From Myxococcota bacterium (GTDB taxonomy: Bacteria; Myxococcota; XYA12-FULL-58-9; JALHOP01), in the NCBI GenBank assembly GCA_041288095.1, contig JBGGMJ010000149.1, positions 1 through 49,426 on the forward strand: DNA of 49,426 nt. Reading direction: 5' to 3'. The notes under the pieces were generated by a model, which saw only the letters and a list, made by a program, of their open reading frames with translations, was not told the origin of the DNA and searched no databases. This document shows, piece after piece, positions 8,102-30,700 of this stretch. The first letter of the stretch is position 1; each line of letters starts with the position of its first letter. The position numbers and the translations under genes are program-made.

Positions 8102-8128
8102 TTTTCGCCGCCGAGAGGCGCAGGTTGC
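8102..8128 (-). promoter_or_regulatory. Shared motif copy 1: GCAAC-N16-CGAAAA
   Basis: Minus strand GCAAC ctgcgcctctcggcgg CGAAAA, 23 nt upstream of ATG 8078. Confidence 0.65.
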
Positions 8129-8197
8129 TCCCTTCCGAGAACGGGGAGTGTCCGCATGACATCTCTCGACGACGAAACGGCCAGTCCGGGCCCCGCC

Positions 8198-10087
8198 TCA
8201 GGGGCTTGTGAACTCCAGGACCTGAGTGCAGTCCGAGCTACAGTAGGTGCAGTCGAGGACGCCGGGCGGACAGTCGGTTTCATCCAGGTTGTTGCCGTCA
8301 TCGCAGGTCTCGGCGCCTGGCCCGGTGAGGAGCTGAAAGCCGTCGCCGCAGCTGTTTGCCTTGCAGTCCGGCAGGCACGCCCCGCCGTAACCGTTGTTGC
8401 TCCCCTCGTCGCATTCTTCGACGCCTGGAGACGCGACATCGAGCTCTCCGTCACCGCACGTTGCCGTCTGACAGGTGAGGGGGTCAGGCTGACTGCTCAA
8501 GCAGTTGTCGTCGTCCTGGTCGTTGCCGTCGTCACAGGTCTCGCCCGGATCGAGGCGGCCGTTGCCACAGGTCTCCAAGAAGCATGCGCTGCTGCACGCG
8601 AACGATGTCGGATTGTCCGCGCCGTCGCACTCCTCTCCAGCGTCGATGACGTCGTTACCGCAGTCCTCGATCTGGCAGAGGTCCGAGCAGCCGTCGCCCG
8701 CGTCGGTGCCGCCGTCGTCACAAGCTTCATTGGACGCGCGGTTGATGATGCCGTCACCGCAGACCGGCAGGGTGCAATCGAAATCGCACAGGTCGGTGTT
8801 GGCACCGCCGCTATCGCAGACCTCGGCCGGCGCCGTGGTCTTCACGACGTTGTCGCCGCAGCGTGCAAGCTGACAGTTGTCGAGGCAGTCGTCGGTGTTA
8901 TCGGCGTCGCTGTCGTCGCACTGCTCGCCGTTCAGGCTCTCGGTGACGCCATTGCCGCAGGTCTCGATTTGGCAGAGCGCCGAGCAGCCATCGCCGTCCG
9001 TCGTCCCGCCGTCGTCACATTGATCGACACCGGGAGCCAAGAGCGGAGTGAAGGAGCGGTTGATGATGCCGTCACCGCAATCGGGAGCGGTGCAGTCGAA
9101 GTTGCACGCGGCGCTGTTGATCGCCAGCGCATCGCACGCATCGGTGCCGTTGGTGACACCATCGCCACAGCGAGGCTGCTGGCAGTTGTTGCGGCAGGTG
9201 TCGGTATCCGTCTCGTTGCCGTCGTCGCATTGCTCGCCGTTGTCGGCTTCATGGACGCCGTTGCCGCAGGTCTCGATCTGGCAGAGCGCCGAGCAGCCAT
9301 CGCCATCGTCGGTGCCACCGTCGTCGCACTGCTCGACGCCAGGCGCGCCCGGCGGGGTGTGGTTGCGGTTCACGCGCGCGTCGCCGCACTCCGCTATCGT
9401 GCAGTCGCCGTCACAAGCTGGTCCGTCACCGCCGGCGTCGCACGCCTCGGCGATGCTGTCGATGCCGTCGCCGCATGCATGCCGCGTACAATCGTTGCGG
9501 CAAGCGTCCAGGTCATCGCTGTTGCCGTCGTCACACGCCTCTTCGCCGTCTGCTATCCCATTGCCGCAGCTTTCGAATTGGCAAACCGCCGAGCACCCGT
9601 CGCCGTCCACGGTGCCCCCGTCATCGCAGTGCTCGACCACGGTCGCCCCGGACGGCGTGAAGCTCTTGTTGACGTGTCCGTCGCCGCACGCGGGAGCCGT
9701 GCAGTCGGCGTCGCATGTCGCCGAATCGTTGCTAGTGTCGCAGAGCTCGTCGGTGCCGACGATGCCGTCGCCACAGCGCGGCTCGAGAGTCACCGATGTT
9801 TCGAGCTGGCAGGTCGACGAGCAGCCGTCGCCGTTCGCGGTTCCGCCGTCATCGCACTCCTCGGTACCGGCGGCGCCCGGCGGCGTGAAGCTAGCGTTGA
9901 CGCGGCCGTCGCCGCACGCGGGCGCGGTGCAGTCGCTGTCGCAGGTCTGCGACTCACCGCCGGTGTCGCAGGTTTCCTGTCCGTTGAGGATTGCATCACC
10001 GCAGGTCGCACCGACGAGCGTGGTGTCGATGGTGCCGGTACACGATACGGCAAAGAGTGCGAGGAGAAGGGGGGCGAGTGAGCGCAT
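8198..10087 (-). CDS. Lipoprotein with Myxococcus Cys-rich repeats (DUF4215-like)
   Basis: Lipobox FAVSC; more than a dozen CG(D/N)G...E.CD(D)G(N/G)...DGC...C repeats. Confidence 0.9.
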   Translation of the reverse strand: MRSLAPLLLALFAVSCTGTIDTTLVGATCGDAILNGQETCDTGGESQTCDSDCTAPACGDGRVNASFTPPGAAGTEECDDGGTANGDGCSSTCQLETSVTLEPRCGDGIVGTDELCDTSNDSATCDADCTAPACGDGHVNKSFTPSGATVVEHCDDGGTVDGDGCSAVCQFESCGNGIADGEEACDDGNSDDLDACRNDCTRHACGDGIDSIAEACDAGGDGPACDGDCTIAECGDARVNRNHTPPGAPGVEQCDDGGTDDGDGCSALCQIETCGNGVHEADNGEQCDDGNETDTDTCRNNCQQPRCGDGVTNGTDACDALAINSAACNFDCTAPDCGDGIINRSFTPLLAPGVDQCDDGGTTDGDGCSALCQIETCGNGVTESLNGEQCDDSDADNTDDCLDNCQLARCGDNVVKTTAPAEVCDSGGANTDLCDFDCTLPVCGDGIINRASNEACDDGGTDAGDGCSDLCQIEDCGNDVIDAGEECDGADNPTSFACSSACFLETCGNGRLDPGETCDDGNDQDDDNCLSSQPDPLTCQTATCGDGELDVASPGVEECDEGSNNGYGGACLPDCKANSCGDGFQLLTGPGAETCDDGNNLDETDCPPGVLDCTYCSSDCTQVLEFTSP

Positions 10088-10154
10088 TGGCGCGAACTTT
10101 AGCCGAAACCGCCGGGGCATTTCCTTACTTTCGTGGAGAGGGTAAACGACCCCC

Positions 10155-10700
10155 ATGCGCTTCGTGCTTCTTGGTTTGTTCGCGGTCGTGGCCTGCTCGG
10201 ATGGCGAGGGCGACGCGCCCATCGCGTTGCCGAGCGACGGTCCCGTCGGCGAGCCTTGTGCCGCGCCGGCGACGGGCTCCGCGACCGTCAGCGACAGCGG
10301 CCCTGATCTCGGGCTCGCGGGCATCGTCGGCGTCGGTTGGGCGAACCTTGGCCACCGTACTTTCGATCCGGACATCGTCTTCGCCAACGACATCGACATC
10401 AGCGTCACCAGCGGCTGTGGCCACTCGACGCCACGCCCCACGTTCACCATCCGAGTCGCGCGCGAGACCGTCGCTCTCGGGACTCACACGATCCCGGGTG
10501 GAGCCGACGCAACCCTCCTCTACAGCAACCAATTCGGCGTCGATCCAGTGCCGGCGACCGGCGGCTCGGTCACGCTCACCGGCTTCGATCCGACGACGGG
10601 CTCACTTTGCGGCGAAGCCATCCTCGAGTTTCCGTCGCGGCCCAATTTCGAGGCGCGCACGGTCTCCGCCACCTTCGCTGCCTACAGCTACTGCGACTAG
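10155..10700 (+). CDS. Hypothetical lipoprotein
   Basis: Signal MRFVLLGLFAVVAC; beta-rich body with paired Cys. Confidence 0.75.
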   Translation: MRFVLLGLFAVVACSDGEGDAPIALPSDGPVGEPCAAPATGSATVSDSGPDLGLAGIVGVGWANLGHRTFDPDIVFANDIDISVTSGCGHSTPRPTFTIRVARETVALGTHTIPGGADATLLYSNQFGVDPVPATGGSVTLTGFDPTTGSLCGEAILEFPSRPNFEARTVSATFAAYSYCD

Positions 10701-10703
10701 GTG

Positions 10704-11660
10704 ATGGCGGTGCTGGTCACAGGTAGCGCCGGCCACCTGGGCGAGGCGCTCATGCGGACACTCCGCTCACGTGGTGAGCCCGCGCTCGGTGTCGACATCA
10801 AGGCGGCTCCGTTCACCGACCGGGTGGCTTCCGTCGGGGACCGCGAAACCATGCGCTCCTGCCTGCGCGGCGTCGACGCGGTGGTGCACGCGGCGACGTT
10901 GCACAAGCCGCACGTCGCCACCCACAGCCGTGAGGAGTTCGTCGCCACCAACGTCCACGGGACGCTCGTGCTCCTCGAGGAAGCCAAGCGCGCCGGGGTG
11001 CGCTCGTTCGTCTTCATCAGCACGACCAGCGCCTTCGGGTTGGCGTTGACGCCGCGGCCGGGTGAGCCGGCAACCTGGATCACCGAAGACGTAACGCCGA
11101 TCCCCAAGAATATTTACGGCACCACCAAGGTCGCGGCCGAAGGCCTCTGCGAGCTCTTCGCGCGCAACGAAGGCTTGCCGGCGGTGGTGCTACGGACGTC
11201 GCGCTTCTTCCCCGAAGAAGACGACAACACCGCCATCGCCGCGACCTATGCGACGGCGAACGCGCAGGTGAACGAGCTGCTCTACCGGCGGGTCGATGTC
11301 GCGGACATCGTGGACGCGTGTTTCCTGGCGGTGGCGCGAGCACCGGCGTTGCGCTTCGGCAGGTACATCATCTCCGCGACCACGCCATTCGAGCGCGAGC
11401 ATCTCGCCCGCCTTGCAACGGATGCCGCCGCCGTCGTCCGCGAGCTCTTTCCGGCGCATGTCGCGCTCTATGCCGAGCGCGAATGGCGTATGTTTCCGAG
11501 CTTCGATCGCGTCTATGTCAACGCCCTCGCGCGGCAAGAGCTCGGCTGGAGACCCCGCCACGACTTCGCGAGCGCTCTCGCGATGCTCACCGCTAAAGAG
11601 GACTTTCGTAGCAGGCTCGCCCAGGAGATCGGCATGAAGGGGTACCATGCTCCAGCTTAG
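10704..11660 (+). CDS. NAD-dependent epimerase/dehydratase (extended SDR)
   Basis: VLVTGSAGHLG, VVHAATLH, YGTTK catalytic motif. Confidence 0.92.
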   Translation: MAVLVTGSAGHLGEALMRTLRSRGEPALGVDIKAAPFTDRVASVGDRETMRSCLRGVDAVVHAATLHKPHVATHSREEFVATNVHGTLVLLEEAKRAGVRSFVFISTTSAFGLALTPRPGEPATWITEDVTPIPKNIYGTTKVAAEGLCELFARNEGLPAVVLRTSRFFPEEDDNTAIAATYATANAQVNELLYRRVDVADIVDACFLAVARAPALRFGRYIISATTPFEREHLARLATDAAAVVRELFPAHVALYAEREWRMFPSFDRVYVNALARQELGWRPRHDFASALAMLTAKEDFRSRLAQEIGMKGYHAPA

Positions 11661-12618
11661 TATGGCGTTGCTCGTCGTCGCGGCGCCTTCGCTGAAGCTG
11701 CTCGACGCCACGATGCCGGCCATCGCCAAGCGCGCGGAGCCCGGCCGCCTCGGCGTCGCTGTGTACGACTTCGCAACCGGCCGGCGCTGGAGCCTGCGCG
11801 GTGACGAAGGCTTTCCCCTGCAGAGCGTCTTCAAGGTGATGGCGGGCGCGCGCATGTTGCAAGAAGTCGACGCCGGCCGGCGCCGAATCGACGAGCCGGT
11901 CCAGATCACGGCGCGTGAGCTGTCGGTCTTCTGGAGCCCAATCACCGACGAATGGCGGCCGCCGGCGAAGACCTATCCGCTGCGGCGGCTCATCGAGCTC
12001 GCCGTGGCGGTGAGCGACAACACCGCCGGTGATCACATCTTGCGGCTCGGAGGCGGACCAAGCGCTCTGAATGCGATGTTCGCCAAAGCGGGCATCAACG
12101 GCGTCCGCGTCGACCGCTACGAGCGTGAGCTGCAGCCCGAGTGCGCCGGTCTGCCGCCGTTCCCGCCCGAGGCCGTCATCGACGTGCCGAAGTTCGCGAG
12201 AGACGTGGAAGCGCAACCGGACGCGGTGAAGACGAGGGCGCTCGAGGCGTATCTCGCGGATCCGCGCGATACCGCGACTCCCAACGGCGCGGTCGACTTC
12301 CTCGTCGCTCTCGCGAACGGCAAGCTGCTCGGCGCCGAGTCGACGTCGCGGCTGCTCGCCATCATGACGAGCACGACGACCGGTAAGCACCGCATGAAGG
12401 CGGGGCTGCCGGCAGGGGTCGCTTTGGCGCACAAGACCGGCACCGCGAACACGGTGCTCGGCACGAGCCCCGCGGTGAACGACATCGGCATCGTCACGCT
12501 CGTAGACGGCCGCCGTGTTGCTATCGCGGTCTTCTTGAGTGGTGCACGGGGCGACGAGGCATCGCGCGAGGGCATCCTCGCCGAGGTCGCTCGGCTCGTC
12601 GTCGAAGCGTCGCGCTAG
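11647..12618 (+). CDS. bla: Class A serine beta-lactamase
   Basis: FPLQSVFK (SxxK), SDN, RYERE (E166-equivalent), HKTGT, NDIGI. Confidence 0.9.
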   Translation: MLQLSMALLVVAAPSLKLLDATMPAIAKRAEPGRLGVAVYDFATGRRWSLRGDEGFPLQSVFKVMAGARMLQEVDAGRRRIDEPVQITARELSVFWSPITDEWRPPAKTYPLRRLIELAVAVSDNTAGDHILRLGGGPSALNAMFAKAGINGVRVDRYERELQPECAGLPPFPPEAVIDVPKFARDVEAQPDAVKTRALEAYLADPRDTATPNGAVDFLVALANGKLLGAESTSRLLAIMTSTTTGKHRMKAGLPAGVALAHKTGTANTVLGTSPAVNDIGIVTLVDGRRVAIAVFLSGARGDEASREGILAEVARLVVEASR

Positions 12619-12625
12619 GTAAGCG

Positions 12626-14077
12626 TCAGAACTCTTCGGCGAGCAGGCGCTTGCCCTGCACCGACAAGCCGGCCGCGTTGAGGATCGGGTTGATGCTCTT
12701 TGGCGTCGTCGCGCGCTCGTATTCGAACGCGAGGACCGTGCCGATGAGCGCCGCGAGGCTCACGGCGCCCGTGACGAGCGCGCCGCTGAGCATCTGCTGC
12801 ACGCTGAAGTAAGCGGTCGCCGCCATCGCACCGGTGAACGCCGAGAGACCGAGCGCGGTGGTGCCGGCGCCGAGCACGCCACCCGGATAGTAGCTGGGCG
12901 CAAGACCACGTGCGCCGCTGCCACCAACGAAGGGCGCGGGGCCGCCTGGGCCCGCGAATCCAGGTCCGCCCGTCGGGGCGAGGCCAGGGAGCGTCGGATT
13001 CGGGTTGTACTTCTCGCGGTGCCGGCGAATCGACGAGCGGAACAAGTTCTTCACGAACGTCGTCGCCGACTCTCTTCGCGTGTTGGGGACGTCGGCCTTC
13101 CACAGGACGCGACCGGTGAGGCGAATCTCACCGACTTCGCCGGTCAGGCTCTTGTCGCCGGCCGCGGAGAAGGCAGCGACAGTCGGCGATGACGTCGACT
13201 TGGCGGAGAAGCTCACGCGGTCGTTGTAGGTGATGTTCTTGATCTCGCCCTTGTCGCGCACCGCGACGTAGAGCTTCGATTTCTCCGGCGTCTCGCCATC
13301 GGACTGGATGTACACGCGATCGTAGCCCGACTCGTTGAAGCCGGGATCGTAGTGCGCGATCATCTTGTTGAACATGTCCTGGAACTGCTGCGCGCGTTCG
13401 TCCTCGGGACGATTCGGCGATGGGCGCGGGATGCCACGAACCTCGGGGAGCGGAACGACGCAGTAGAAGGCTTCGCCGTTGATGTAGACGGGGCCGTGAT
13501 TGGCGAGACCGTTCGTGCCGCTGGCCATGAACTCGCGCAGGTCACGGATCTTGTCCATGAAGTCGGTGATGTTGCCGGCGTAGAGTTTCTTGCCGCCGTC
13601 CTGGAAGGCGCGCGCCAGCTCGTCGGGCTTGTCGAGGAGCGCCACCGCCTGCTTCAAGGCGCCATTGTCGAGAATGGTTTCCTTCGCGGGGATGCGGCCG
13701 AACTTGCCGGCGATGAGCTTCGCCGCCTCTTTGTGCGGTTCGCTCCAAAGCGCGTCGATGAGAAAATCGGGGATGGTGCCTTCGCCCTTGGGACCGACCT
13801 TCGGGGCGCCCAGGTAGGAATCGAGCGCGGCGACGCGATGAACGGCGTCCGGACCCGAGAGCTCGGGGATGCCGTCGTAGCCCTTGCCAGCCGCGATGTT
13901 CGCCTTCACCGCTTCGAGGTCGGCGACGGAGAGCTGGCTGACGAACGACGTGGTCTTGGACTTCCCCTGGACCTTCGTCTTCATGACGGCGATGGCCGTC
14001 GCCCGGTCGTACGGGAGGGTGATCTCGTGCGGAACGATACAGCGCGTGTCGGCGTTAGCCGAACCGAAGCCGAGCAT
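12626..14077 (-). CDS. Hypothetical protein with Gly/Pro-rich linker and C-terminal hydrophobic helical hairpin
   Basis: 483 aa ORF with strong coding bias, GAGGT RBS, no Sec signal, two C-terminal hydrophobic segments. Confidence 0.8.
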   Translation of the reverse strand: MLGFGSANADTRCIVPHEITLPYDRATAIAVMKTKVQGKSKTTSFVSQLSVADLEAVKANIAAGKGYDGIPELSGPDAVHRVAALDSYLGAPKVGPKGEGTIPDFLIDALWSEPHKEAAKLIAGKFGRIPAKETILDNGALKQAVALLDKPDELARAFQDGGKKLYAGNITDFMDKIRDLREFMASGTNGLANHGPVYINGEAFYCVVPLPEVRGIPRPSPNRPEDERAQQFQDMFNKMIAHYDPGFNESGYDRVYIQSDGETPEKSKLYVAVRDKGEIKNITYNDRVSFSAKSTSSPTVAAFSAAGDKSLTGEVGEIRLTGRVLWKADVPNTRRESATTFVKNLFRSSIRRHREKYNPNPTLPGLAPTGGPGFAGPGGPAPFVGGSGARGLAPSYYPGGVLGAGTTALGLSAFTGAMAATAYFSVQQMLSGALVTGAVSLAALIGTVLAFEYERATTPKSINPILNAAGLSVQGKRLLAEEF

Positions 14078-14111
14078 GGGTCACCTCTGGACGGATTTAC
14101 GCCAGGTACGT

Positions 14112-14138
14112 GTATCGACGTGCCTGCGGCGGGGTTGC
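14112..14138 (-). promoter_or_regulatory. Shared motif copy 2: GCAAC-N16-CGATAC
   Basis: Minus strand GCAAC cccgccgcaggcacgt CGATAC, 34 nt upstream of ATG 14077. Confidence 0.65.
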
Positions 14139-14187
14139 GTCGGAGGTGGCCTGCTGCGGCGGCAGGGGGTGCTTTGTTGTCACTCCG

Positions 14188-14673
14188 CTAGAACACGCAC
14201 AATTGCACGCAACGTCCGGCGGTCGTTTGCGACGTGGGCACGGCGCAGACCCAGCCAGCCTGGCAGAGGTTGCCGCTATCGCAGGCAGAAGCCCCCGCAG
14301 GCACTGATCCGTCATCGAGACAGATCGCGTCCCCGGTGACCTGGGAGGTGCATTGCGTGCCCGGACCGCAGCGGGTGTAGCCCTCGCAAGCGCAGTTGCC
14401 GCGGTAGAAGGCGGCGTCCGCAAGGCAGGACCCGGCGTTGACCGATTCGCAGGAGCTGGCGACGAAGTCGTCGCGCTCGGCGTCCGAGAGCCCTTCAGCG
14501 AGGCACTGGTCGACGTAAACACCGCGGCTCACGGCCCCTTGGCAGCCGATGTCCGCGAGGCAGAAGTCGGTGCGGTAGTAGACGTCTTCGCAGCGCTCGC
14601 GGGCGCGCTCGCCGATGTCGGCGTCGTCGCCGCAGGCCGCCAGCAAGAGGAGAAGGCTAAGAGCTTTTCGCAT
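14188..14673 (-). CDS. Cys-rich lipoprotein
   Basis: MRKALSLLLLLAAC lipobox; many Cys; overlaps folP 3' end by 17 bp. Confidence 0.8.
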   Translation of the reverse strand: MRKALSLLLLLAACGDDADIGERARERCEDVYYRTDFCLADIGCQGAVSRGVYVDQCLAEGLSDAERDDFVASSCESVNAGSCLADAAFYRGNCACEGYTRCGPGTQCTSQVTGDAICLDDGSVPAGASACDSGNLCQAGWVCAVPTSQTTAGRCVQLCVF

Positions 14674-15481
14674 CGCGCACCGCCGAGGCGACCTTCACCG
14701 CGTCGAGGCAGGCCGCCACATCATGGACGCGTAAGATGCTCGCGCCATTCATGATCGCAAGCGCATTGATGGCGGCGGTCGCACGCTCGCGGTCATCGAC
14801 GTCGCGCCCAGTGAGCTCGCCCAGGAAACGCTTGCGGGAGGCGCCGTAGACCACGGGGCCGAGTCGCGTGAGCGCCCGCAACGTCTTGGTGAGCACGAGA
14901 TTGTGTTCGGCGGTCTTGCCGAAGCCGATGCCGGGGTCGACGAGGATGCGGCCGATCCCCGCGGTGCGGGCCTTGGCGCAGGCGCGCTCGAGCTCGGTGA
15001 CCACGGTGGCGGTGATGTCGTCGTAGCGCAGCTCGCCTTGCTGCATGGTGCGGGGGTCGCCACGCTTGTGCATGAGGATGACCGCCGCGTCGTGGGCGGC
15101 GATGGTCTCCGCCATCTCGGCGTCTTCCAGAGCGGACACGTCGTTGACGATGTGGGCCCCGATCGCGAGCGCCGCCTTCGCGACCACTGCTTTGCGGGTG
15201 TCAACGGAGAGCGCCACCGGCAGACCGGCCGCCGCCAGGGCTTCGACGACGGGAATGACGCGTTCGAGCTCGTCGTCCGCCGAAACGGGCAGGGCCCCAG
15301 GGCGGGTCGACTCACCACCCACGTCGAGCAACGTCGCGCCTTCGCGGACCAGGCGCTCGGCATGCTCCAAAGCAGCACGGACGGCCATGTGCCGCCCGCC
15401 GTCGGAGAACGAATCCGGCGTCACGTTGACGATGCCCATGAGCAGGGGGGCATCGCTCAACGTTACCGGTCCAAGCCGCAA
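14657..15481 (-). CDS. folP: Dihydropteroate synthase
   Basis: MGIVNVTPDSFSDGG, DVGGESTRPG, SVDT, DPGIGFGK, SRKRF, LRVHDV; follows ftsH. Confidence 0.97.
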   Translation of the reverse strand: MRLGPVTLSDAPLLMGIVNVTPDSFSDGGRHMAVRAALEHAERLVREGATLLDVGGESTRPGALPVSADDELERVIPVVEALAAAGLPVALSVDTRKAVVAKAALAIGAHIVNDVSALEDAEMAETIAAHDAAVILMHKRGDPRTMQQGELRYDDITATVVTELERACAKARTAGIGRILVDPGIGFGKTAEHNLVLTKTLRALTRLGPVVYGASRKRFLGELTGRDVDDRERATAAINALAIMNGASILRVHDVAACLDAVKVASAVRDAKSS

Positions 15482-15486
15482 GCTGC

Positions 15487-17415
<1,929 letters not shown>

Positions 17416-22085: not shown

Positions 22086-22088
22086 AAC

Positions 22089-23561: not shown

Positions 23562-23709
23562 TCCGGTATAGCGGCACGATGTCCCAAAACATGGAACCGT
23601 TTGAATATGTTTCCACGTTATTCACGGCGTTGCCGTGTTTGGCGCGATTCCGGATGTAGGCGCAACTGGGTTTTGCGCACCCCGCTATGGCGGAGCACCC
23701 GGGGGACAC

Positions 23710-23738
23710 TTGGCAGAGCCGATGCCCCGTGCTACCTG
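23710..23738 (+). promoter_or_regulatory. Putative promoter of tRNA-Val
   Basis: TTGGCA-N14-TGCTACCTG, 16 nt before the tRNA. Confidence 0.45.
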
Positions 23739-23754
23739 CCGGTCGCGCTTTTTG

Positions 23755-23826
23755 GGGCGAATAGCTCAGCGGTAGAGCGCCTGCTTTACACGCAGGATGT
23801 CGGGGGTTCGAGACCCTCTTCGCCCA
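23755..23826 (+). tRNA. tRNA-Val(TAC), CCA not encoded
   Basis: Acceptor GGGCGAA/TTCGCCC plus discriminator A, anticodon arm CCTGC-TTTACAC-GCAGG, T-loop TTCGAGA. Confidence 0.96.
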
Positions 23827-24018
23827 TACCTTGCCCCTTGTTCCGTCGCTGCGCGACGGCGGGGCTGTCGGGATCGCGCGGAAAACGACGGCGAACCCGA
23901 CCTCATTGTGACCTTGCGCTTCGAACGTATCGTGTTGCGGTGCGCGCGGCTTCGGCGGCGGGTCGGCGCCTCAGCTGCGGCACTGCGCATCGATGGCCTC
24001 TTGCGTGCGCAATAACAT

Positions 24019-24033
24019 AACGAAAAAACCGTC
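24019..24033. promoter_or_regulatory. Putative LysR(NhaR)-type dyad upstream of ice-binding gene
   Basis: AACG-AAAAAAC-CGTC in AT-rich tract; same CG-N7-CG geometry as the dyad upstream of the LysR gene. Confidence 0.4.
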
Positions 24034-24123
24034 ATATTCTAATGAAAGTTCCTTATTTTCAAACTGTCCTCGATAGCGCACAGTGGCTCGAATAGAAAAT
24101 AGTCACGCTATCCAGGAGTCCTG

Positions 24124-25548
24124 ATGATTTCGAAATCGTATCGGTCCGCTTCAACAGCCGCCATGGCAGTCGCTTTCGTGTTGCTCTCGCTGACCGCCGC
24201 TTGCGGTGGCGACGATGATGGTTCACCGGACCGCGCGCCGACAGTGAGCTCCAACAGCCCTCTCAATGACGCAGTCGGCGTTCCTCTCAACGCGGAAATG
24301 AGCGTCGCCTTCAGCGAGGCCATGGACCCGTCGACCCTCACGACTTCCACGTTTGCGTTGAAGCAGGGATCGACCACGGTCGCCGGCGCCGTGAGCTATA
24401 GCGGCAACACCGCGACGTTCAATCCGACGAGTAATTTGTCGCCCAGCTTGATTTATACGGCGACGGTCACCGAAGGGGCGAAGGGCCTCGACAACAATGC
24501 TCTCGCCAACGACTACGTATGGGCCTTCACCACCGGGTCGAGCGCGGACACCAGCGCACCGACGGTCTCCTCCGCGGATCCACTCAACCTTGCGACGTCG
24601 GCGTCGACTAACCGGAGCATCACCGCGCGCTTCTCCGAGGCGATGAATCCCACGACATTGAACGCGTCCAGCTTCACCGTCAAAGGCCCGGGCAACAGCG
24701 CCGTGTCAGGTGTGGTCAGCTACTTCGGCATGCATGCGACCTTCAACCCGGACGCGAACCTCGCGCCCAATACGTTGTTCAATGCGACCATCAGCACCGC
24801 TGCCAAGGACCTCGCGGGCAACGCTTTGGCGAGCAGCTACGCATGGAGCTTCACTACCGGCGGCACCGCCTCCATGGGCCCAGACCCGGTCCTGCTCGGC
24901 TTGGCCGGAGACTACGTCATTCTGGCGAAATCAGGGATCGACACTGTTCCAGGCTCGGTGATCACGGGCGACCTTGGAGTTAGCCCCATCGACTCTACGG
25001 CGGTCACTGGATTTTCGCTCACCGTACACGCCAGCAACGAGTACGCGACCTCGGCACAGGTCACCGGTAAGGTTCGCGCACCCGACTACGCGTCGCCGAC
25101 TCCCGCGCTTCTGACGACCGCGATCAGCAACATGGAAACGGCTTACACGGACGCAGCCGGACGGCCCACACCCGATGCGACCAACCTCGGCGCTGGCGAG
25201 ATCGGCGGGCTGACGCTTGCCCCCGGTCTCTACAAGTGGGGCACCGGCGTGTCGATTGCGACTGACGTGACGCTGCAAGGCGGCCCCAACGACGTCTGGA
25301 TCTTCCAGATTTCAGGCGACCTCACTCAGGCCTCGAATACCAACGTCACCCTCGTCGGTGCCTCGCCGAAGAATGTCTTCTGGCAGGCGTCTGGCCAGGT
25401 GCTGATTGGCACAGGCGCCGACTTCCGGGGCATCGCGCTCTGCGAGACGGCGATCATCCTCGGGACAGGCGCGTCCGTGAACGGCAGGCTGCTGGCTCAG
25501 ACAGCGGTCACGCTCGATCAGAACGCGGTGACGCAACCGGCGCTGTAG
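24124..25548 (+). CDS. Ice-binding family (DUF3494) lipoprotein with two Ig-like (Big_5) domains
   Basis: Lipobox LTAAC; two APTVS..P...FSEAM(D/N)P.TL...ATFNP...Y.W.FTTG domains; DUF3494 motifs YVILAKSGI, ITGDLGVSP, AYTDAAGR, LAPGLYKW, WIFQI, NVFWQ, GRLLAQTAVTL. Confidence 0.93.
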   Translation: MISKSYRSASTAAMAVAFVLLSLTAACGGDDDGSPDRAPTVSSNSPLNDAVGVPLNAEMSVAFSEAMDPSTLTTSTFALKQGSTTVAGAVSYSGNTATFNPTSNLSPSLIYTATVTEGAKGLDNNALANDYVWAFTTGSSADTSAPTVSSADPLNLATSASTNRSITARFSEAMNPTTLNASSFTVKGPGNSAVSGVVSYFGMHATFNPDANLAPNTLFNATISTAAKDLAGNALASSYAWSFTTGGTASMGPDPVLLGLAGDYVILAKSGIDTVPGSVITGDLGVSPIDSTAVTGFSLTVHASNEYATSAQVTGKVRAPDYASPTPALLTTAISNMETAYTDAAGRPTPDATNLGAGEIGGLTLAPGLYKWGTGVSIATDVTLQGGPNDVWIFQISGDLTQASNTNVTLVGASPKNVFWQASGQVLIGTGADFRGIALCETAIILGTGASVNGRLLAQTAVTLDQNAVTQPAL

Positions 25549-25563
25549 GCCTGCGAGCGCGCG

Positions 25564-26472
25564 CTAGAGCCCGGCGAAAATCTGCTGCCGGGCTGCCTCG
25601 CGGATGGCGACGACCGCCGGGTGCTTGATCTTCCGCTCCACCGAGATGGCGTAGAACTGCTGGCGTACGGCGCGCTGCCGCCCAATGACACGCACGCCGT
25701 ACTGCTTCAGAACCTCCGCCTCGATGACGGTCGGCGCGCCGAAGACCCCCATGCCGGCCGCCCCGAGGTCCTTCGCCAATGCGCTGTCGTCACACTCGGC
25801 GATGATCCTGGGTCGGAGGCCTTCGGAATCGAACCATTGCTGCAAGACGCGCCGCACCGTCGATGGTCCACCTGACAGAAGAAACGGAACGCCATCCAGA
25901 GAGCGCGGGAACGTGCGTCGAAGCTTCGCGGCGAGCTTGGGGTGGGCGAAGAACGTCGTGCCGCACTCGCCGAGCAGGTGATTGTAGACCCGCACCGACA
26001 CATGGGCCGGCGCCAGTCCATCGGCGATGACCACGTCGACCTTGTGCAGGGCGAGGTCGGCGACGAACTCCTCGACCGACTTGTCGGCGCGACAGATGAT
26101 GCGCACCGAGCTTGCCAGGCCGAAGGCCGGCTCCAGGAAGCGCCGCACCAGGGACGGTGGCAAGACCTGCGCGATACCGACGACCAACCTGAGGGGCGCG
26201 CCGCTGCCGCGCCCCTTGAGCGTGTCGACGAACTCGCGCCCGAGCGAGAAGATCTCATCGGCATAGCGAAAGGCAATCTGCCCTGAGTCGGTGAGCTCGA
26301 GCCCACGGCCTCGGCGGCGAAAGAGCTTCTCGCCGAGCACCTCCTCCAAACGGTGGATCTGGCCGCTGATGGTCGGATGTGCGAGCCGCAGCTCTTCGCT
26401 GGCGCGGGCGATGCTACCGTGTTTGGCAGTCGACCAGAAGTACAGCAGGTGATGGTAGTTGAGCCATTCCAT
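25564..26472 (-). CDS. nhaR: LysR-family transcriptional activator, NhaR-like
   Basis: MEWLNYHHLLYFW..GSIARASEEL..PTISGQI; YADEIFSLGRE; DDSALAK; FYAISVERKIKHPAV. Confidence 0.9.
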   Translation of the reverse strand: MEWLNYHHLLYFWSTAKHGSIARASEELRLAHPTISGQIHRLEEVLGEKLFRRRGRGLELTDSGQIAFRYADEIFSLGREFVDTLKGRGSGAPLRLVVGIAQVLPPSLVRRFLEPAFGLASSVRIICRADKSVEEFVADLALHKVDVVIADGLAPAHVSVRVYNHLLGECGTTFFAHPKLAAKLRRTFPRSLDGVPFLLSGGPSTVRRVLQQWFDSEGLRPRIIAECDDSALAKDLGAAGMGVFGAPTVIEAEVLKQYGVRVIGRQRAVRQQFYAISVERKIKHPAVVAIREAARQQIFAGL

Positions 26473-26487
26473 GGCGCAGGCTCATAG

Positions 26488-26502
26488 GTCGCATTCTACG
26501 AC
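26488..26502. promoter_or_regulatory. LysR T-N11-A dyad upstream of nhaR-like gene
   Basis: Perfect dyad GTCG-CATTCTA-CGAC 15 nt upstream of the ATG. Confidence 0.6.
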
Positions 26503-26587
26503 ATGTCACTGTCGCACCTGATCCGCCGCGATGTGGCTACGTGGGGTTGCGCCGGCACCACCGCGCGCCGAGAAAACCCGACAGAGC

Positions 26588-26641
26588 CGTGGGTAGCTTT
26601 CCTTGCGTGGGAACCGCCCGACTTGAGTGGAGTTACCCACG
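26588..26641. repeat. Imperfect inverted repeat (possible enhancer or RNA stem)
   Basis: CGTGGGTAGCT ... AGTTACCCACG, 10 of 11 Watson-Crick pairs plus one G-T. Confidence 0.5.
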
Positions 26642-26848
26642 TGTCAAGCGATCTCTGGGTGTCACGAATCGACTGCGGAGAATCTCAGAAGGTCCAAGGG
26701 TCCGACTGGATGTTCTTCCTCGACTGGATCGAGTTGAGGTCGCCGTTCCTACAAGTGGCCTGGTGTCGAGGTGACTCAGAGGCCACCACACCGCACCGCC
26801 GATACGCGTGGACGCGCTCCGCTTTGGCGTTCGTCTTGGGTTCCTCGA

Positions 26849-26864
26849 TGGCACGTGGGCTGCA
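26849..26864 (+). promoter_or_regulatory. Sigma54 -24/-12 promoter
   Basis: TGGCACG-TGGG-CTGCA, one mismatch to TGGCACG-N4-TTGCA. Confidence 0.7.
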
Positions 26865-26950
26865 CCTGGCGTTGAAACACCTGCGTCGCCAAAGCGGCTG
26901 CGCACGCGCTGGAGAGCTCTCTGAGAACCTACACGTCGCGCCCGTTCGCC

Positions 26951-28621
26951 TTGCCGCTTGCGTGTATCACCGTACTCATCGCCGGCTGTACCGGCGAGGT
27001 CATGGTGGGAAGCACCTATGCAACCTTGGTCAGCATCGCCTCCGAGCCCGCGGGTGCGAATTGCGTGGCCGGCGGCAGCGCCATCAGCAGTGGTCTCGAT
27101 AACGGTGGCGGCGGGGGGATCGCCGGTGACGGTGTGCTGTCGCCCGGCGAGGTCACCGCGACCTCGTATGTTTGTTCTGGCGTCGCCGGCGCGAATGGCA
27201 ACAACGGCGCGAATGGCCTCGATGGAATGAGTGGTGTCGCTGGCGCGGACGGAACAGACGGCACGAACGGCACGGATGGCGCTAATGGAGCTGACGGCAC
27301 CAACGGAAGCGACGGTGCGAGCGGAAGCGACGGTGCGAACGGAAGCGACGGCGCCAACGGAAGCGACGGCGCCGCCGGCCACAATGCCCTGATCGCCATG
27401 ACACCTTTCGAAACCAACACGGTGTGCCCAGCGGGTGGCCAACAAGTCGACGTTGGCGTCGACGATGGCTCCGGCGTCGGCAGTATCAGCGACAATGCCA
27501 TTCTCGACCCCGGCGAGATCGATAGCACCGCTTACGTTTGTAACGGCTCGAGCGGCAATGACGGTTCGAACGGTGGTGACGGCGCGAGCGGCTACAACAG
27601 CCTCCTACGCGTGACGCCCGAAGACGTGGGTGACCATTGCGCCGTCGCCGGCTTCCGCGTCGATGCGGGTCTCGACAACGGCGACAACGAGGGCGTTGCC
27701 CGCGATGGCGTACTCCAAGACGGCGAAGTCGATGCCACCGCCTATCTGTGCGAAGCGCCGCCGGTCGTCGCGAGCATCCTCGCGTTTGGCGGCTCATTCG
27801 GGTCGACCGCTTTGCTCGTGCTCGACCTCCGCGCCGGTACGTGGTCGCAGCCCTTCATCGATCTGACCGCCATTTACTACACGCAGTTTGGCGGCGGCGC
27901 TTATATGGTCTCCGACCACGATAACGGACAGCACGCTCGGGTGTATTACGAAGGCGGCAACGCGCTCGTCAGTAACGTCTCCTACTACGAGTGGAGTCGC
28001 TTCGCGGTCCGCGGCCCCGATGTCGCATTCACTGACCCGTCCTCCGGCGCCTGGAACATCACCTTCGGTGACTACGCGACTAACAGCTACACGACGATCA
28101 CCAACAACCAGACGCCGTGCTGCGAAGACTATCGGGCCGTCGACGTCGACAGTGATTGGGTCGTTTACCAGCGCTACAACTTCCCCGAGGTCACCGACAC
28201 CGTGGTTGCGTACAACCGCGCGACGCAGACGGCGACCGACATCACGTTCGGCACGCAACCCCACGTCTCCGGCTCCAAACTGGCTTACGTCACCGCGGGT
28301 GGTAGCCAGCTCGTGGTCCATGACCTCGTCACTCTCGACAGCGTCATCGTGAACGCGGACATCGCCGGCTACCCAGAGTACGTCTCGATCGACGGTAACT
28401 TCGTCGCCTTCACGCAGGATGGCGAGGCCTTCGTCTACGACATCGCGCTCGCGACCCGCGTCGATGTCGGCTCCGCCTCGCGGACCAAGATGACCGAGGG
28501 CTACTTGCTCTATGTCAGCGGCGACGGACGCTCGGTGAAGAGCTACAACGCGGCCACGCACGCCGAGAAGCTGGTCATCCACCAGGACAGCGGCTGGTTC
28601 GATTTTCAGAACATCGACTAG
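26951..28621 (+). CDS. Surface lipoprotein: three Cys-flanked repeats (DUF7151-like), Gly-X-X repeats, C-terminal beta-propeller-like domain
   Basis: Lipobox IAGC; three C..GG....G.D.G......DG.L..GE.....Y.C repeats; GANGSDG repeats; beta-rich C-terminus; start may be CTG 26921. Confidence 0.85.
   Translation: MPLACITVLIAGCTGEVMVGSTYATLVSIASEPAGANCVAGGSAISSGLDNGGGGGIAGDGVLSPGEVTATSYVCSGVAGANGNNGANGLDGMSGVAGADGTDGTNGTDGANGADGTNGSDGASGSDGANGSDGANGSDGAAGHNALIAMTPFETNTVCPAGGQQVDVGVDDGSGVGSISDNAILDPGEIDSTAYVCNGSSGNDGSNGGDGASGYNSLLRVTPEDVGDHCAVAGFRVDAGLDNGDNEGVARDGVLQDGEVDATAYLCEAPPVVASILAFGGSFGSTALLVLDLRAGTWSQPFIDLTAIYYTQFGGGAYMVSDHDNGQHARVYYEGGNALVSNVSYYEWSRFAVRGPDVAFTDPSSGAWNITFGDYATNSYTTITNNQTPCCEDYRAVDVDSDWVVYQRYNFPEVTDTVVAYNRATQTATDITFGTQPHVSGSKLAYVTAGGSQLVVHDLVTLDSVIVNADIAGYPEYVSIDGNFVAFTQDGEAFVYDIALATRVDVGSASRTKMTEGYLLYVSGDGRSVKSYNAATHAEKLVIHQDSGWFDFQNID
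27179..27380 (+). repeat. Coding Gly-X-X tandem repeat (about 22 triplets; 18-bp DNA unit AACGGAAGCGACGGTGCG)
   Basis: GVAGANGNNGANGLDGMSGVAGADGTDGTNGTDGANGADGTNGSDGASGSDGANGSDGANGSDGAAG. Confidence 0.85.
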
Positions 28622-28693
28622 CGAGAGGGCGTTGCCGCGACCGCCAGATGACGCGGCGGCAGGCTGGTAGTCGTTCGACCGCCGACCGGCGCA

Positions 28694-28720
28694 GCAACTC
28701 CGGTCGAGCCGCGCCGAAAA
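28694..28720 (+). promoter_or_regulatory. Shared motif copy 3: GCAAC-N16-CGAAAA
   Basis: GCAAC tccggtcgagccgcgc CGAAAA, 30 nt upstream of GTG 28751. Confidence 0.65.
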
Positions 28721-28750
28721 GATAAGAGCCGCGCTGTCGATGGAGCTGTC

Positions 28751-30190
28751 GTGCACCCGAGTGTCCCGACGTCGAACATCATTGGGGGTCTGGGTTGGCG
28801 TTACGTCAAAGCGGAAGGCTTTGGCTGGACCGACAACCGGACGGCTGAAGAGCTGAGCAAGATCGACCAATGGCAGGCCAAAAGATGGCTCGATAAGATC
28901 TGCAGAGATGCGGAGACCAGCAAGCGCCCCGATGTCCTCGACGCGGCCCAGGCGGCGCGCGCAACCTTGGCGCAGAGTGGCTGGAAGCAATTCCTTCACG
29001 GCGTCGTAGCCTCTCTCGAGCGCTTTCCCGAAGCACGGTCCTTCGCGGCGCTGGTCGACACGGCACCGGCCGCCACCGGAGCAAGCGCCGCCGTCGAGGT
29101 TCAGACGAAGCCCGACGGGATCGTCAAAGCGTCCTTTCTGCGCGCGCGCCTCGACGACATGGTGGTGGGCCAGGAAGCCGCCAAGCAGGCGCTGGTGGTC
29201 GGCGTGCGCAACCACGCCAAGCGCGCGCATCTGCTGCAAATCGGGACCGACCCGGCGACGGTACCCGCCAAGAGCAACATCTTGATGATCGGGCCCACGG
29301 GCGCCGGCAAGACCAAGCTAGCGAGCATCATCTCGCGTTGCTGCGGCTTCCCCTTCGTCCCCGTCGACACGACGCAGTACACGGCGACCGGTTATGTCGG
29401 CCGCGATGTGTCGTCGATCGTCCTGGACCTGCTCGATGCCGCTGGTGGTGATCTGGCGAAGGCACAGCTCGGCATCGTGTTTCTCGATGAGATCGACAAG
29501 CGCCGCCAGTCGGAGGGGAGCGGTGCGGACGTGAGCGGCGCCAAGGTTCAGCACGAGCTCTTGAAGATGGTCGAGGGCACGATCGTGAAGATCGAGCGCC
29601 CGGGAAAACCGCCCATCCATTTCGATACCACCAACGTGTTGTTCATCGCGGCTGGCGCGTTCGCTGGTCTCGAGCGCGTGATCGCCGAGCGCAAGCTCGA
29701 GGAGGCTCGTGCCGGCAACACCTCGAGCATCGGTTTCGGCGGCACTCTCATCGACGTCGAGGCCATGAAGAACGCGGCGGCCGCACGCGACTATTTGCGG
29801 GCCACACAGCCCGAAGACGTGAGCAAGCTGGGCATCATGCCCGAGCTCATCGGCCGCTGTCCGGTGCTCGTCACCTTGGACAAGCTGACGGTCGAGGACT
29901 ACGAGCGGATCCTCACCGAGCCCAGCGATGCGCTCGTTCGTCAGTTCCAGGCACTGTTCGCGCTGGACGGCGTCAAGCTGAGCTTCGAAGCGCCCGGGTT
30001 GCGTGCTATAGCGGAACGCGCGGAAAAGCTGCCAACCGGCGCGCGCGGTTTGCGAACTCTCATCGAGAGTGTCCTTGGCGGGGTTCAGGCGAACCTCGAG
30101 GACTATGCGGCGCGGGGCATCAGCGAGTGTGTGGTGACGCGCGAGTTCGTCGAAGGTCACGCTCCGGAGCCGAAGCTGATTGGCGCATGA
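28751..30190 (+). CDS. clpX: ClpX-like AAA+ unfoldase with atypical N-terminal domain (no C4 zinc finger)
   Basis: VVGQEAAK, KSNILMIGPTGAGKT, TGYVGRDV, GIVFLDEIDK, DVSG..VQ..LLKMVEG, IGF loop, PELIGR, TGARGLR. Confidence 0.88.
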   Translation: MHPSVPTSNIIGGLGWRYVKAEGFGWTDNRTAEELSKIDQWQAKRWLDKICRDAETSKRPDVLDAAQAARATLAQSGWKQFLHGVVASLERFPEARSFAALVDTAPAATGASAAVEVQTKPDGIVKASFLRARLDDMVVGQEAAKQALVVGVRNHAKRAHLLQIGTDPATVPAKSNILMIGPTGAGKTKLASIISRCCGFPFVPVDTTQYTATGYVGRDVSSIVLDLLDAAGGDLAKAQLGIVFLDEIDKRRQSEGSGADVSGAKVQHELLKMVEGTIVKIERPGKPPIHFDTTNVLFIAAGAFAGLERVIAERKLEEARAGNTSSIGFGGTLIDVEAMKNAAAARDYLRATQPEDVSKLGIMPELIGRCPVLVTLDKLTVEDYERILTEPSDALVRQFQALFALDGVKLSFEAPGLRAIAERAEKLPTGARGLRTLIESVLGGVQANLEDYAARGISECVVTREFVEGHAPEPKLIGA

Positions 30191-30197
30191 GCGCTAG

Positions 30198-30566
30198 CTA
30201 GGCTTCCATGAGCCGGCCGCGTGGCCTGATCGGTGCTCGCTCGCCGGGACCTGGGGCCGGTGTCTGCTGGGGCGCGGGCGGCGCCTTCGGGCCGTCGATG
30301 ATGGCGTTCACGATGGCCTTTGCCGTCTGGCGCGCGTTCTGCAGAACCAAGCCGCCGGCAACACGGGGACACTCGAGTGGCAAGGCCTGCATGGCTTGGC
30401 CGATGGCGCTGATGGCGCTCGCGGTACGCTGCTCGATGGCGTCACGTTCCGCGGTCGTGATGGTCTTGCCTTCCGGCGAATCGTCCTGGCGCGCTGCTTC
30501 GACCTCGGCGGCGGCTTGGGCCGCGACGGGAGAAAGGTCGAGCTTGATTGCGCAAACTGCATCCAC
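30198..30566 (-). CDS. Small helical hypothetical protein
   Basis: GTG start after AGGGG; GC-biased codons; shared promoter motif upstream. Confidence 0.6.
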   Translation of the reverse strand: MDAVCAIKLDLSPVAAQAAAEVEAARQDDSPEGKTITTAERDAIEQRTASAISAIGQAMQALPLECPRVAGGLVLQNARQTAKAIVNAIIDGPKAPPAPQQTPAPGPGERAPIRPRGRLMEA

Positions 30567-30604
30567 GTTACACGCCCCTATTTCGACAAGGTCAGTCCTC
30601 GTCT

Positions 30605-30631
30605 TTTTCGGCGGGCGCCGAGCATTGTTGC
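30605..30631 (-). promoter_or_regulatory. Shared motif copy 4: GCAAC-N16-CGAAAA
   Basis: Minus strand GCAAC aatgctcggcgcccgc CGAAAA, 38 nt upstream of GTG 30566. Confidence 0.65.
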
Positions 30632-30672
30632 GTGAATTCCCGCTGCCTGACGCTGTGACGGGCGCGGCTTCG

Positions 30673-30700
30673 ACAACGGCCCTGGCTGTGAGCGCGATAC
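30673..30700 (+). promoter_or_regulatory. Shared motif variant: ACAAC-N17-CGATAC
   Basis: 34 nt upstream of GTG 30735. Confidence 0.4.

Follow-up and report, generated by a model that had tools for sequence, protein, structure and literature searches.

Myxobacteria carry a non-flagellar type III secretion system (T3SS) which is described, in the available text of Abby and Rocha (PMC3459982), as an early branch derived from the flagellum and placed at the base of the non-flagellar T3SSs. In the available parts of the reports on Myxococcus xanthus, this apparatus (T3SS*, mxan_2434-2464) is needle-less and linked with the Kil Tad pilus, and its effectors are called 'potential' (PMC12075869, PMC10849154, PMC12288465); it is required there for prey lysis (PMC12075869, PMC10849154). 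The same parts of these four papers name no sigma factor, promoter or effector set for T3SS*. PMC12075869 and PMC3459982 do not contain the word 'sigma' at all, and the available text of the latter mentions neither sigma nor FliA in relation to the Myxo system. In main texts without supplements we found no paper tying a sigma-28-like factor or the motif treated here to a myxobacterial T3SS; one Myxococcus preprint containing 'FliA' means the FliA of E. coli. The motif in question, GCAAC and CGATA set 16 or 17 nucleotides (nt) apart, was noticed in a 49,426-nt stretch of DNA from an uncultured soil myxobacterium (contig C149, hereafter the window), and our analysis deals with this motif, with the sigma factor of the T3SS* cluster that probably reads it, and with the genes behind it. 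The assembly of the host (G000) comprises 5.85 Mb in 212 contigs with 66% G+C and is 90% complete. A search of sequencing runs found this DNA in three DNA runs, all of one soil study, and in no RNA run. Its genes were predicted by a purpose-written codon-usage caller, which gave 5045 genes covering 93% of the genome.

The preliminary description of the window had proposed GCAAC-N16-CGA(A/T)A(A/C) as a dispersed promoter. Counted over the whole of G000, this pattern gave 135 matches at a spacer of 16 and 65 at a spacer of 17, compared with 6-16 at spacers 10-15 and 18-23. GCAAC-Nx-CGATA behaved in the same way, with 133 matches at N16 and 60 at N17 and only 4-15 at the remaining spacers between 10 and 23. 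Single-base changes in the boxes mostly brought the counts down to background, and the changes that were tolerated are ACAAC, GAAAC, GCACC and CGAAA. An intergenic position at most 150 nt upstream of a same-strand gene was found for 101 of the 135 matches at N16 and for 42 of the 65 at N17, while at spacers 13-15, 18 and 19 it was found for 0-1 of 8-11. The 193 strict sites (GCAAC-N16/17-CGATA) are scattered over 101 of the 212 contigs; 151 are intergenic and no more than 200 nt before a same-strand gene, 16 are intergenic otherwise, and 26 lie within called genes. Thus 151 of 167 intergenic strict sites face a gene start at most 200 nt away (median distance 45 nt), a number that falls to 54 when the sites are flipped. 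A weight matrix trained on the strict seeds only (listing floor 8 bits, target threshold 12 bits) found 322 intergenic matches of at least 12 bits against 142 in 13.6-fold more coding DNA, a density ratio of 31, and the 12-bit matches lead to 292 first-gene targets.

The strict spacing of 16 or 17 nt, the unrelated spacer sequences and the strong bias of orientation and position agree with the earlier view that these are the boxes of a promoter and not a mobile repeat. Judged by these sequence statistics, the motif is a major promoter class, not a chance pattern or a mobile repeat. Over the 135 sites with N16, the -10 region reads G (53%), C (56%), an invariant CGA, T (81%), A, and then A (56%) or C (43%). 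Taken with its flanking bases, the -10 box is gcCGATAa/c and matches the GCCGATAA type. The CGA(A/T) pattern of the preliminary description needs one correction: T predominates at the fourth position genome-wide, and the main form is CGATA, not CGAAA; CGAAAA, found at three of the four exact window sites, is a minority variant in the genome (25 against a background of 11). The same description had set the -35 box apart from TAAA, and this holds: the box is GCAAC, and it tolerates single substitutions poorly. Two further patterns, GCAAC-N17-CGACA (76 times) and GCAAC-N17-CGAGA (57 times), exceed the approximately 27 matches at control spacers in G000 and may represent a related or overlapping promoter class.

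Two sigma factors that resemble FliA/WhiG along their entire length are encoded in G000, at C92:35188-36072 and C127:21744-22571. The best family of the C92 sigma is TIGR02479 FliA_WhiG, a three-region model to which it aligns end to end (HMM positions 1-223 of 224). Its profile, searched against the PDB, matched 6pfv/6pfj best (E 7e-39), a 278-aa chain listed only as 'RNA polymerase sigma factor' in what we take to be the Streptomyces WhiG-RsiG complex. E. coli FliA (6pmi, 5e-38), Aquifex sigma-28 (1rp3, 7e-34) and WhiG (7lq4, 1.2e-24) came next, and other classes followed at 2.5e-19, 1.8e-17 (a chain named only 'sigma factor') and 1e-12 (RpoS/SigA). Another sigma gene, at C31:7743-8564 near SctV, was rejected as a candidate; its product has region 1.2 in addition to regions 2 and 4, its FliA score is just 69.9 bits, and C31 carries no strict motif.

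Promoters of extracytoplasmic function (ECF) sigmas typically combine a -35 box that contains AAC with a -10 box that contains CG, at a spacing of 16-17 nt. GCAAC and a -10 box starting with CG at this distance resemble them, and candidates are abundant: there are 36 Sigma70_r2 matches in G000, mostly ECF-sized (about 30 ECF-like sigma genes), and one ECF gene lies in the window at 3621-4112. The motif could then be the promoter of an ECF-type (group 4) sigma, but we consider this very improbable. ECF sigmas usually autoregulate, and no strict motif was found within 300 nt upstream of any of the 32 sigma genes (of 36) that the gene caller covered, which argues against a self-regulated ECF sigma; the sole exception among the 32 is a weak variant, GAAAC-N16-CGAAG, 277 nt upstream of the C127 sigma. 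Extended by its flanks to gcCGATAa, the -10 box of the motif takes the form seen with sigma-28. Approximately 300 promoters are far above the usual size of an ECF regulon. Unlike two-domain ECF sigmas, which lack region 3, the C92 sigma linked to the motif aligns over the three-region FliA model. Finally, the motif flanks a FliA-like sigma gene physically and tracks it across the phylum, as described below.

The C92 sigma gene is the last of a module, STK-p230-p215-p111-p185-TPR-p159-sigma, whose gene order is kept in 39 loci of other metagenome-assembled genomes (MAGs). All related loci retrieved belong to uncultured Myxococcota MAGs, some of them under the older labels Bdellovibrionales or Deltaproteobacteria. 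In most of the 39 loci the sigma gene is followed directly by p163-SctJ-FliG-like-SctL-SctN-SctO-(FliK-like)-SctQ-SctR-SctS-SctT, the T3SS* operon. In the genus of G000 the sigma module and the p163-SctJ operon are separated by an RND efflux operon (C92:24471-33560; outer-membrane factor, two AcrB-type pumps and an HlyD-type adaptor). The T3SS* core genes are all present in G000 (SctV, U, R, S, T, N, L, J, Q and O-like), and the components concerned here are located as follows.

C31:3248-5395, FHIPEP (SctV)
C41:2102-3184, FlhB/SctU
C92, FliP, FliQ, FliR, FliO, FliM/N, FliK-like, YscO, ATPase, FliH and YscJ_FliF
C92:36185-36664, minus strand (L159:10185-10664, minus strand), p159, between the TPR gene and the sigma gene
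C92:37386-37943, minus strand (L159:11386-11943, minus strand), p185, first gene of the module, secreted-looking, found behind the motif phylum-wide

At C41:2102-5144, the SctU/FlhB gene has behind it a 170-aa orphan and a 162-aa TPR protein, beyond which a motif of 23.6 bits, among the highest scores, stands upstream of a 284-aa orphan at the contig end; as in the sigma module, a TPR protein stands beside a motif target.

The motif was found 50-143 nt before p185 in 19 of 28 loci. The T3SS* operon starts with p163, and the motif stands no more than 300 nt upstream of this gene in 19 of 34 loci. In G000 itself, ACAAC-N16-CGATAA precedes both genes. A Myxococcus-like genome of another family (G109, a 9.0-Mb single contig with two FHIPEP genes) encodes a sigma 46% identical to that of C92 and keeps the order p189-TPR-p160-sigma, and the exact GCAAC-N16-CGATAA lies 76 nt before p189, the p185 orthologue. 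A check suggested with the earlier observation, for a FliA/WhiG-like sigma and for T3SS-like loci carrying the motif, thus revealed both, with the motif before the first genes of the module and of the operon. The dedicated sigma-28-like factor postulated at the time gains its support from this context, a FliA/WhiG-like sigma in a module beside a T3SS-like operon, with the motif in the promoters. We infer that the C92 sigma recognizes the promoter, and we regard it as likely that the motif is the promoter of this sigma-28 paralogue of the T3SS* cluster.

Conservation of the motif was judged by counting exact N16 matches against reversed-pattern controls (given as matches/control). In three same-genus genomes there were 116-168 matches against 6-8 in the control. 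Nearly all genomes of the same order were enriched (most 23-66 against 1-12), more weakly so in G012 (12 against 2) and least of all in G007 (2 against 2), and enrichment was found in several other Myxococcota families too. In a survey of 121 Myxococcota genomes, whose co-occurrence classes were tallied by hand from two tables, at least 20 exact matches were found in 25 of 37 genomes having a sigma orthologue of at least 50% identity, in 2 of 35 with an orthologue of 35-49% identity, and in 4 of 49 without an orthologue. Within a single genus (g18), the genome with the sigma (G057) had 23 matches against 0, and three without it (G024, G033 and G040) had 5/0, 1/2 and 2/1.

Many genomes of the order also carry real flagellar genes, including those for rod protein and flagellins, and these uncultured Myxococcota relatives appear to be flagellated. 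The same-genus genome G001 has an FlhA-FlhF-FlhG-FliA-FlgF cluster, whose FliA scores 215 bits and so lies above the family cut-off, as well as flagellins (L209, G001:C2:521990-525625; L253-L266). The sigma-28 idea of the preliminary description accordingly holds for the family, with the correction that the relatives have a separate canonical FliA for flagella and that the sigma discussed here is a paralogue. The motif might instead be read by another sigma, either a canonical FliA, possibly missing from the 90%-complete assembly, or the C127 paralogue, the link to the C92 sigma being mere neighbourhood. We consider this unlikely. It is favoured by the true FliA of the same-genus genomes, by two genomes (G005 and G016) which have that FliA and motif enrichment with no C92-type sigma orthologue, by the weak variant upstream of the C127 sigma, and by the expectation that all three sigmas share a CGAT-type -10 box.

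The flagellin promoters of the relatives are, however, of a different type. In 4 of 9 inspected they read CTAAAGGT(T/C)-N11-G(C/A)CGATG and not GCAAC, and this CTAAAGGT type is the canonical sigma-28 form. With GCAA set against TAAA, both promoter types have the same 17 nt up to the CGAT box. Moreover, G000 has the full regulon, but we found in it no counterpart of the flagellar cluster, no Flagellin_N match, no true FliA, only one FHIPEP gene with no second, and no excess of the canonical TAAAG-N16-CGAT form. Three other genomes (G004, G010, which is 100% complete, and G015) are likewise without flagellin; each has one FHIPEP gene and only one FliA-like gene, of the C92 type, and their motif counts are 58/6, 35/1 and 66/9. 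Since the regulon persists without a flagellar FliA and the flagellin promoters differ at -35, the motif would belong to the sigma paralogue. The conservation of the motif before the genes flanking the C92-type sigma, across families, also speaks against a link by neighbourhood only.

Several observations weigh against assignment of the motif to the C92 sigma. The protein scores 163.7-164.4 bits, below the TIGR02479 cut-off of 189.6 (the C127 sigma, with 166.1-166.4 bits, is likewise below it). G005, which is 97% complete, has the p163-SctJ operon and 54 motif matches against 7, but no sigma orthologue was found in it (best 31% identity); no sigma gene was found within 1.5 kb of its p163 and no motif match upstream of p163, the single relaxed-pattern match of this locus lying downstream, inside the operon. 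Five other genomes are enriched without a sigma orthologue, more mildly than G005: G016 (22 against 7), G023 (21 against 1), G060 (23 against 4), G046 and G022. Conversely, G007 carries the sigma yet has 2 matches against 2, in a 1.9-Mb, 65%-complete assembly, and the Myxococcus-like genomes (family f17) keep sigma and module with only 7-12 exact matches against 2-7. A relaxed-pattern match is missing at 9 of 28 p185 loci and 15 of 34 p163 loci, some of which may belong to lower-G+C relatives using variants. In G000 a strong terminator follows p185, and autoregulation of the sigma gene is therefore not supported in this genome.

The neighbour of the sigma gene, p159, belongs to a family of 140-170 aa whose members begin with a conserved MxRIGGGG; their first half is polar and of low complexity, and their C-terminal half is helical. 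In a predicted complex of sigma residues 66-293 with p159, for which alignments of both chains were supplied, the median score was 0.85, and the best of 3 controls reached 0.00. The calibration mark of this score was reached by 116 of 157 solved complexes and by 2 of 215 mismatched pairs, counts which hold roughly here because custom alignments were used. At least 31% of the contacts recur between runs, with a partner pLDDT of at least 59, and the predicted contacts of p159 fall on sigma residues 154-202, 226-233 and 285-293. Since solved sigma-28/FlgM complexes exist (1rp3), likeness to them may add to the score. The model suggests that p159 is a candidate member of a new anti-sigma family, FlgM-like in action; against this stands that p159 has no FlgM Pfam match, nor any Pfam match at E up to 10.

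FliA/FlgM of Salmonella and E. coli is alike in the family of the sigma, by best HMM and solved relatives, in the -10 box (gcCGATAa against GCCGATAA) and in its distance from the -35 box. A sigma gene beside a small partner predicted to bind the sigma, and late products exported by a type III apparatus (putatively so here), are further likenesses. The two systems differ in the -35 box (here GCAAC, not TAAA), in the score of the sigma (164 bits under a cut-off of 189.6) and in the partner, p159 being without a FlgM match. The machine here is a non-flagellar Myxo-type T3SS*, and relatives keep a separate FliA for flagella. The regulon is about tenfold larger than that of FliA and is made of orphans. 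WhiG/RsiG of Streptomyces likewise combines a sigma of the FliA/WhiG family, in a non-flagellar programme, with a dedicated non-FlgM anti-sigma, which here is predicted. Unlike WhiG, which in the available parts of the sources serves a small sporulation regulon under c-di-GMP (PMC12871210, PMC7005675), the sigma here is embedded in a secretion-system cluster and would have hundreds of targets.

The genes behind the motif had been described from the window as orphans without secretion signals, resembling effectors, and the Pfam, Sec and N-terminal tests support this statistically for the genome. No Pfam family at E 1e-6 or better was found for 120 of the 151 strict targets (79%), compared with 27 of 95 controls (28%), of which 9 were among 39 non-targets of the window and 18 among 56 genes from four arbitrary 20-kb regions (Fisher p = 1.5e-15). 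By a hydrophobicity heuristic, 8% of the targets are Sec-like against 34% of the other 4891 genes, and a lipobox is present in 2% against 9%. Type III substrates have no cleavable Sec or lipoprotein signal and bear a polar, disordered N-terminal signal of approximately 20-50 residues. Among Sec-negative proteins, the fraction of S/T/P/Q/N in residues 2-30 is 0.318 in 138 targets and 0.243 in 3219 others (p = 8e-17), and the targets have fewer hydrophobic and acidic residues in this stretch. Their excess of S/T/P/Q/N fades by residue 50 (p = 0.07 for residues 100-130). An independent set of 147 matrix-only targets showed the same pattern (10% Sec-like, 0.316 S/T/P/Q/N). The targets thus have N-terminal features like those of type III substrates, as measured by heuristic tests on starts that we called ourselves.

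Among the 31 targets with a family there are peptidases (three S8 subtilases, a trypsin-like protease, M64, C11, S41, S9 and two M24), a serpin, a gamma-glutamyltranspeptidase, a GH3 glycosidase, an amylase-type enzyme, a PHB depolymerase, an adenosine deaminase, a lytic transglycosylase and a 4157-aa AAA_5/VWA giant. The gene of the giant (C190:4574-17047, minus strand; L088) stands directly behind a strict motif, as does that of a Flp/Fap-type pilin (C23:7871-8122, minus strand; L014), which scores just under its family cut-off. A polar leader in place of a Sec signal was seen on two of the S8 proteases, on the M64, S41 and S9 peptidases, on the GH3 glycosidase and on the serpin. The targets seem to turn over fast: a 483-aa target gene of the window is 68-89% identical within the genus, where the sigma is 95-99% identical.

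Considering these features of the target proteins together with the two conserved core targets (the T3SS* operon and p185), we judge the chances to be even that the regulon is largely T3SS* cargo; the secretion of the targets and their biological role are what we infer from them. Some points tell against the cargo reading. Ordinary Sec signals are present on the trypsin-like protease, an OmpA-like protein, a solute-binding protein and a planctomycete-type PSD-domain protein. A signal-less polar N-terminus fits cytoplasmic or disordered proteins too. The start codons of the targets come from the simple purpose-written caller, and the signal-peptide call is a heuristic on hydrophobicity, not SignalP.

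With sigma and promoter as proposed, the regulon might alternatively be a cytoplasmic programme for development, dormancy or stress, WhiG-like, with the T3SS* operon as one target of many. Absence of a Sec signal is what cytoplasmic proteins show, and the targets include proteins of cytoplasmic type: homoserine dehydrogenase, a glutamate-synthase domain protein, the M24 peptidases, glutathione peroxidase, a ferredoxin reductase-type protein and a ClpX-like AAA+ protein. WhiG offers, in the available text, a precedent for a sigma-28 relative without flagella (PMC12871210). A cytoplasmic programme nevertheless seems improbable to us. The polar bias is confined to the first 40-50 residues or so and is significant even against other Sec-negative proteins; protein types that are normally extracellular, the lytic transglycosylase and PHB depolymerase as well as the S8, M64, S41, GH3 and serpin types, carry polar leaders and not Sec signals; and, among the targets, the T3SS* operon and p185 are conserved best, p185 standing beside a TPR gene that is chaperone-like. 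The Flp-type pilin in the regulon, moreover, matches the partnership of M. xanthus, where the Tad pilus and T3SS* cooperate according to the available text of PMC12075869.

With M. xanthus T3SS* (mxan_2434-2464) and its Kil Tad-like pilus the present system also shares the apparatus type, and the Myxococcus-like G109 has the module and the exact p185 motif. The difference lies in the extent of the regulon, since the 7-12 exact motif matches of Myxococcus-like genomes compare with the 116-168 of this genus.

The first module gene, p185, adjoins the small TPR gene, whose product is chaperone-like in appearance. For p185 no Pfam match was found at E up to 10, phmmer against the PDB gave only glycine-rich chance matches, and a profile search against the PDB gave nothing below E 0.7 and no needle protein. 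Its AlphaFold2 model has a mean pLDDT of 53, with only a long C-terminal helix predicted confidently, and is too poor for a fold search. HrpA_pilin matched 1 of 22 orthologues (E 0.0027) and T3SS_needle_F likewise 1 of 22 (E 0.02), both weakly, and in a neighbouring Atlas cluster T3SS_needle_F is present in 11% of members. The C-terminus may resemble needle subunits, a lead backed only by these weak family matches. p185 may be a needle- or pilus-like subunit of a system called needle-less.

The mechanism that we propose runs as follows. p159 would hold the sigma inactive, as FlgM holds FliA, and the sigma would then be released, possibly by export of p159 through T3SS*, a step which is speculative. 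RNA polymerase with the released sigma would transcribe p185 and the T3SS* operon and, in this genus, would also transcribe about 190 dispersed genes with exact motifs, or about 290 at the matrix level. Most of the proteins that they encode are lineage-specific, lack a Sec signal and begin with a polar N-terminus that looks disordered; these most likely would be the cargo and accessory set of T3SS*, acting with the Tad-like pilus; the programme probably would serve bacterial predation. In its furthest form, the motif would be a genome-readable label of the complete T3SS* cargo (about 300 fast-evolving proteins here, a handful in Myxococcus), with p159 exported as T3SS* engages prey, thereby freeing the sigma for p185, the apparatus and the effectors. 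This form we put forward tentatively, with more doubt than confidence.

BtrS of Bordetella is an ECF sigma, not a relative of sigma-28. The BtrS/BtrA pair is alike in the proposed logic, as a T3SS-exported anti-sigma frees the sigma for T3SS and effector genes in the available account (PMC10732220). It is unlike in serving a needle-bearing injectisome that acts on animal cells, and the export of p159 is speculative here.

In the window, four exact sites of the form GCAAC-N16-CGAWAM were confirmed, compared with 0.07 expected, and none of 100 dinucleotide shuffles reached four. They lie 23-38 nt before plausible start codons, as first described, and a purine-rich stretch stands ahead of each start. 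The promoters and their genes are listed below, with weight-matrix scores where available.

7100..7126, minus strand, weak site GCTAC-N16-CGATCT noted in the preliminary description, excluded from the regulon
7272..8078, minus strand, target gene downstream of the 8102 promoter, 268-aa orphan starting MTTVPAAKSVRI, polar N-terminus, no Pfam family
8102..8128, minus strand, promoter GCAAC-N16-CGAAAA, 14.4 bits, 23 nt before the ATG at 8078
12626..14077, minus strand, target gene downstream of the 14112 promoter, 483-aa orphan, no Pfam family
14112..14138, minus strand, promoter GCAAC-N16-CGATAC, best in the window at 23.7 bits, 34 nt before the ATG of 12626-14077
28694..28720, plus strand, promoter GCAAC-N16-CGAAAA, 13.1 bits, 30 nt before the GTG at 28751
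28751..30190, plus strand, target gene, 479-aa atypical ClpX-like AAA+ protein (AAA_2, ClpB_D2-small) with a unique N-terminal region of about 120 aa
30198..30566, minus strand, target gene downstream of the 30605 promoter, 122-aa orphan, no Pfam family
30605..30631, minus strand, promoter GCAAC-N16-CGAAAA, 19.3 bits, 38 nt before the GTG at 30566, divergent from the 30673 promoter
30673..30700, plus strand, variant promoter ACAAC-N17-CGATAC, 34 nt before the GTG at 30735, below the 8-bit matrix floor
30735..31316, plus strand, target gene of the variant promoter, 193-aa orphan, no Pfam family, low coding score

The variant at 30673 is present as originally noted and probably is a weaker site of this promoter class; its own form, ACAAC-N17-CGATA, occurs 16 times in the genome, where control spacers give about 3. 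The site at 7100 exists too, but GCTAC (5 against 4.2) and CGATC (35 against 28.5) are not enriched genome-wide, and for this reason it is not counted in the regulon; it is missing from the weight-matrix list at 8 bits or more. For the first target, the caller over-extended the open reading frame (ORF) to 7272-8162, and the start compatible with the promoter is the ATG at 8078; the Pfam result comes from the over-extended translation of this frame, 296 aa in length.

The 483-aa gene is restricted to the genus except for one weak distant match in another family (G025), and that homologue also has the motif upstream. Upstream of the gene the boxes are kept and the spacer drifts in 4 of 4 orthologue loci (G000 included), and this is true also of the paralogue loci and of the distant homologue. 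Each genome has one paralogue of 24-26% identity which is likewise a motif target, and 4 of 4 paralogue loci, that of G000 included, carry GCAAC-N17-CGATAT. For the AAA+ target at 28751 no orthologue was found among 30 relatives, same genus included; all matches were ClpX-type paralogues at 36-47% identity, the best of them at 43-44%.

Two other parts of the window were seen in passing. The minus-strand stretch 1853-4112 holds the ECF sigma gene (3621-4112), then two orphan genes (3118-3624 and 1853-3154), and probably is a sigma/anti-sigma unit unrelated to the motif. The stretch 24163-28621 has a lower G+C (0.63-0.64) and encodes an ice-binding-like/Big_5 protein (24163-25548), a LysR regulator and a collagen-repeat/DUF7151 protein (26951-28621); adjoining the motif-rich 28.7-31.3 kb, it may be a variable island.

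The promoter can be read from the genome, and it connects the dispersed genes with the sigma encoded in the T3SS* cluster and with the operon of the apparatus, so that the question of the effectors becomes a testable list. Because the exact motif precedes the p185 orthologue in a Myxococcus-like genome, first experiments are feasible in a model organism. If true, the reading of the motif as a cargo label would identify the long-sought effectors of T3SS*, and the system would also preserve an intermediate stage of regulation on the way from flagellum to injectisome. The approximately 300 mostly Pfam-less proteins of the regulon are a large and unexplored reserve, probably of antibacterial proteins. 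The similar -10 and different -35 boxes of the two sigma-28-type promoters would be a natural case of promoter insulation after duplication of a sigma, and a sigma-28 paralogue with its own anti-sigma on the earliest branch would show that the logic of flagellar late genes was carried into non-flagellar secretion.

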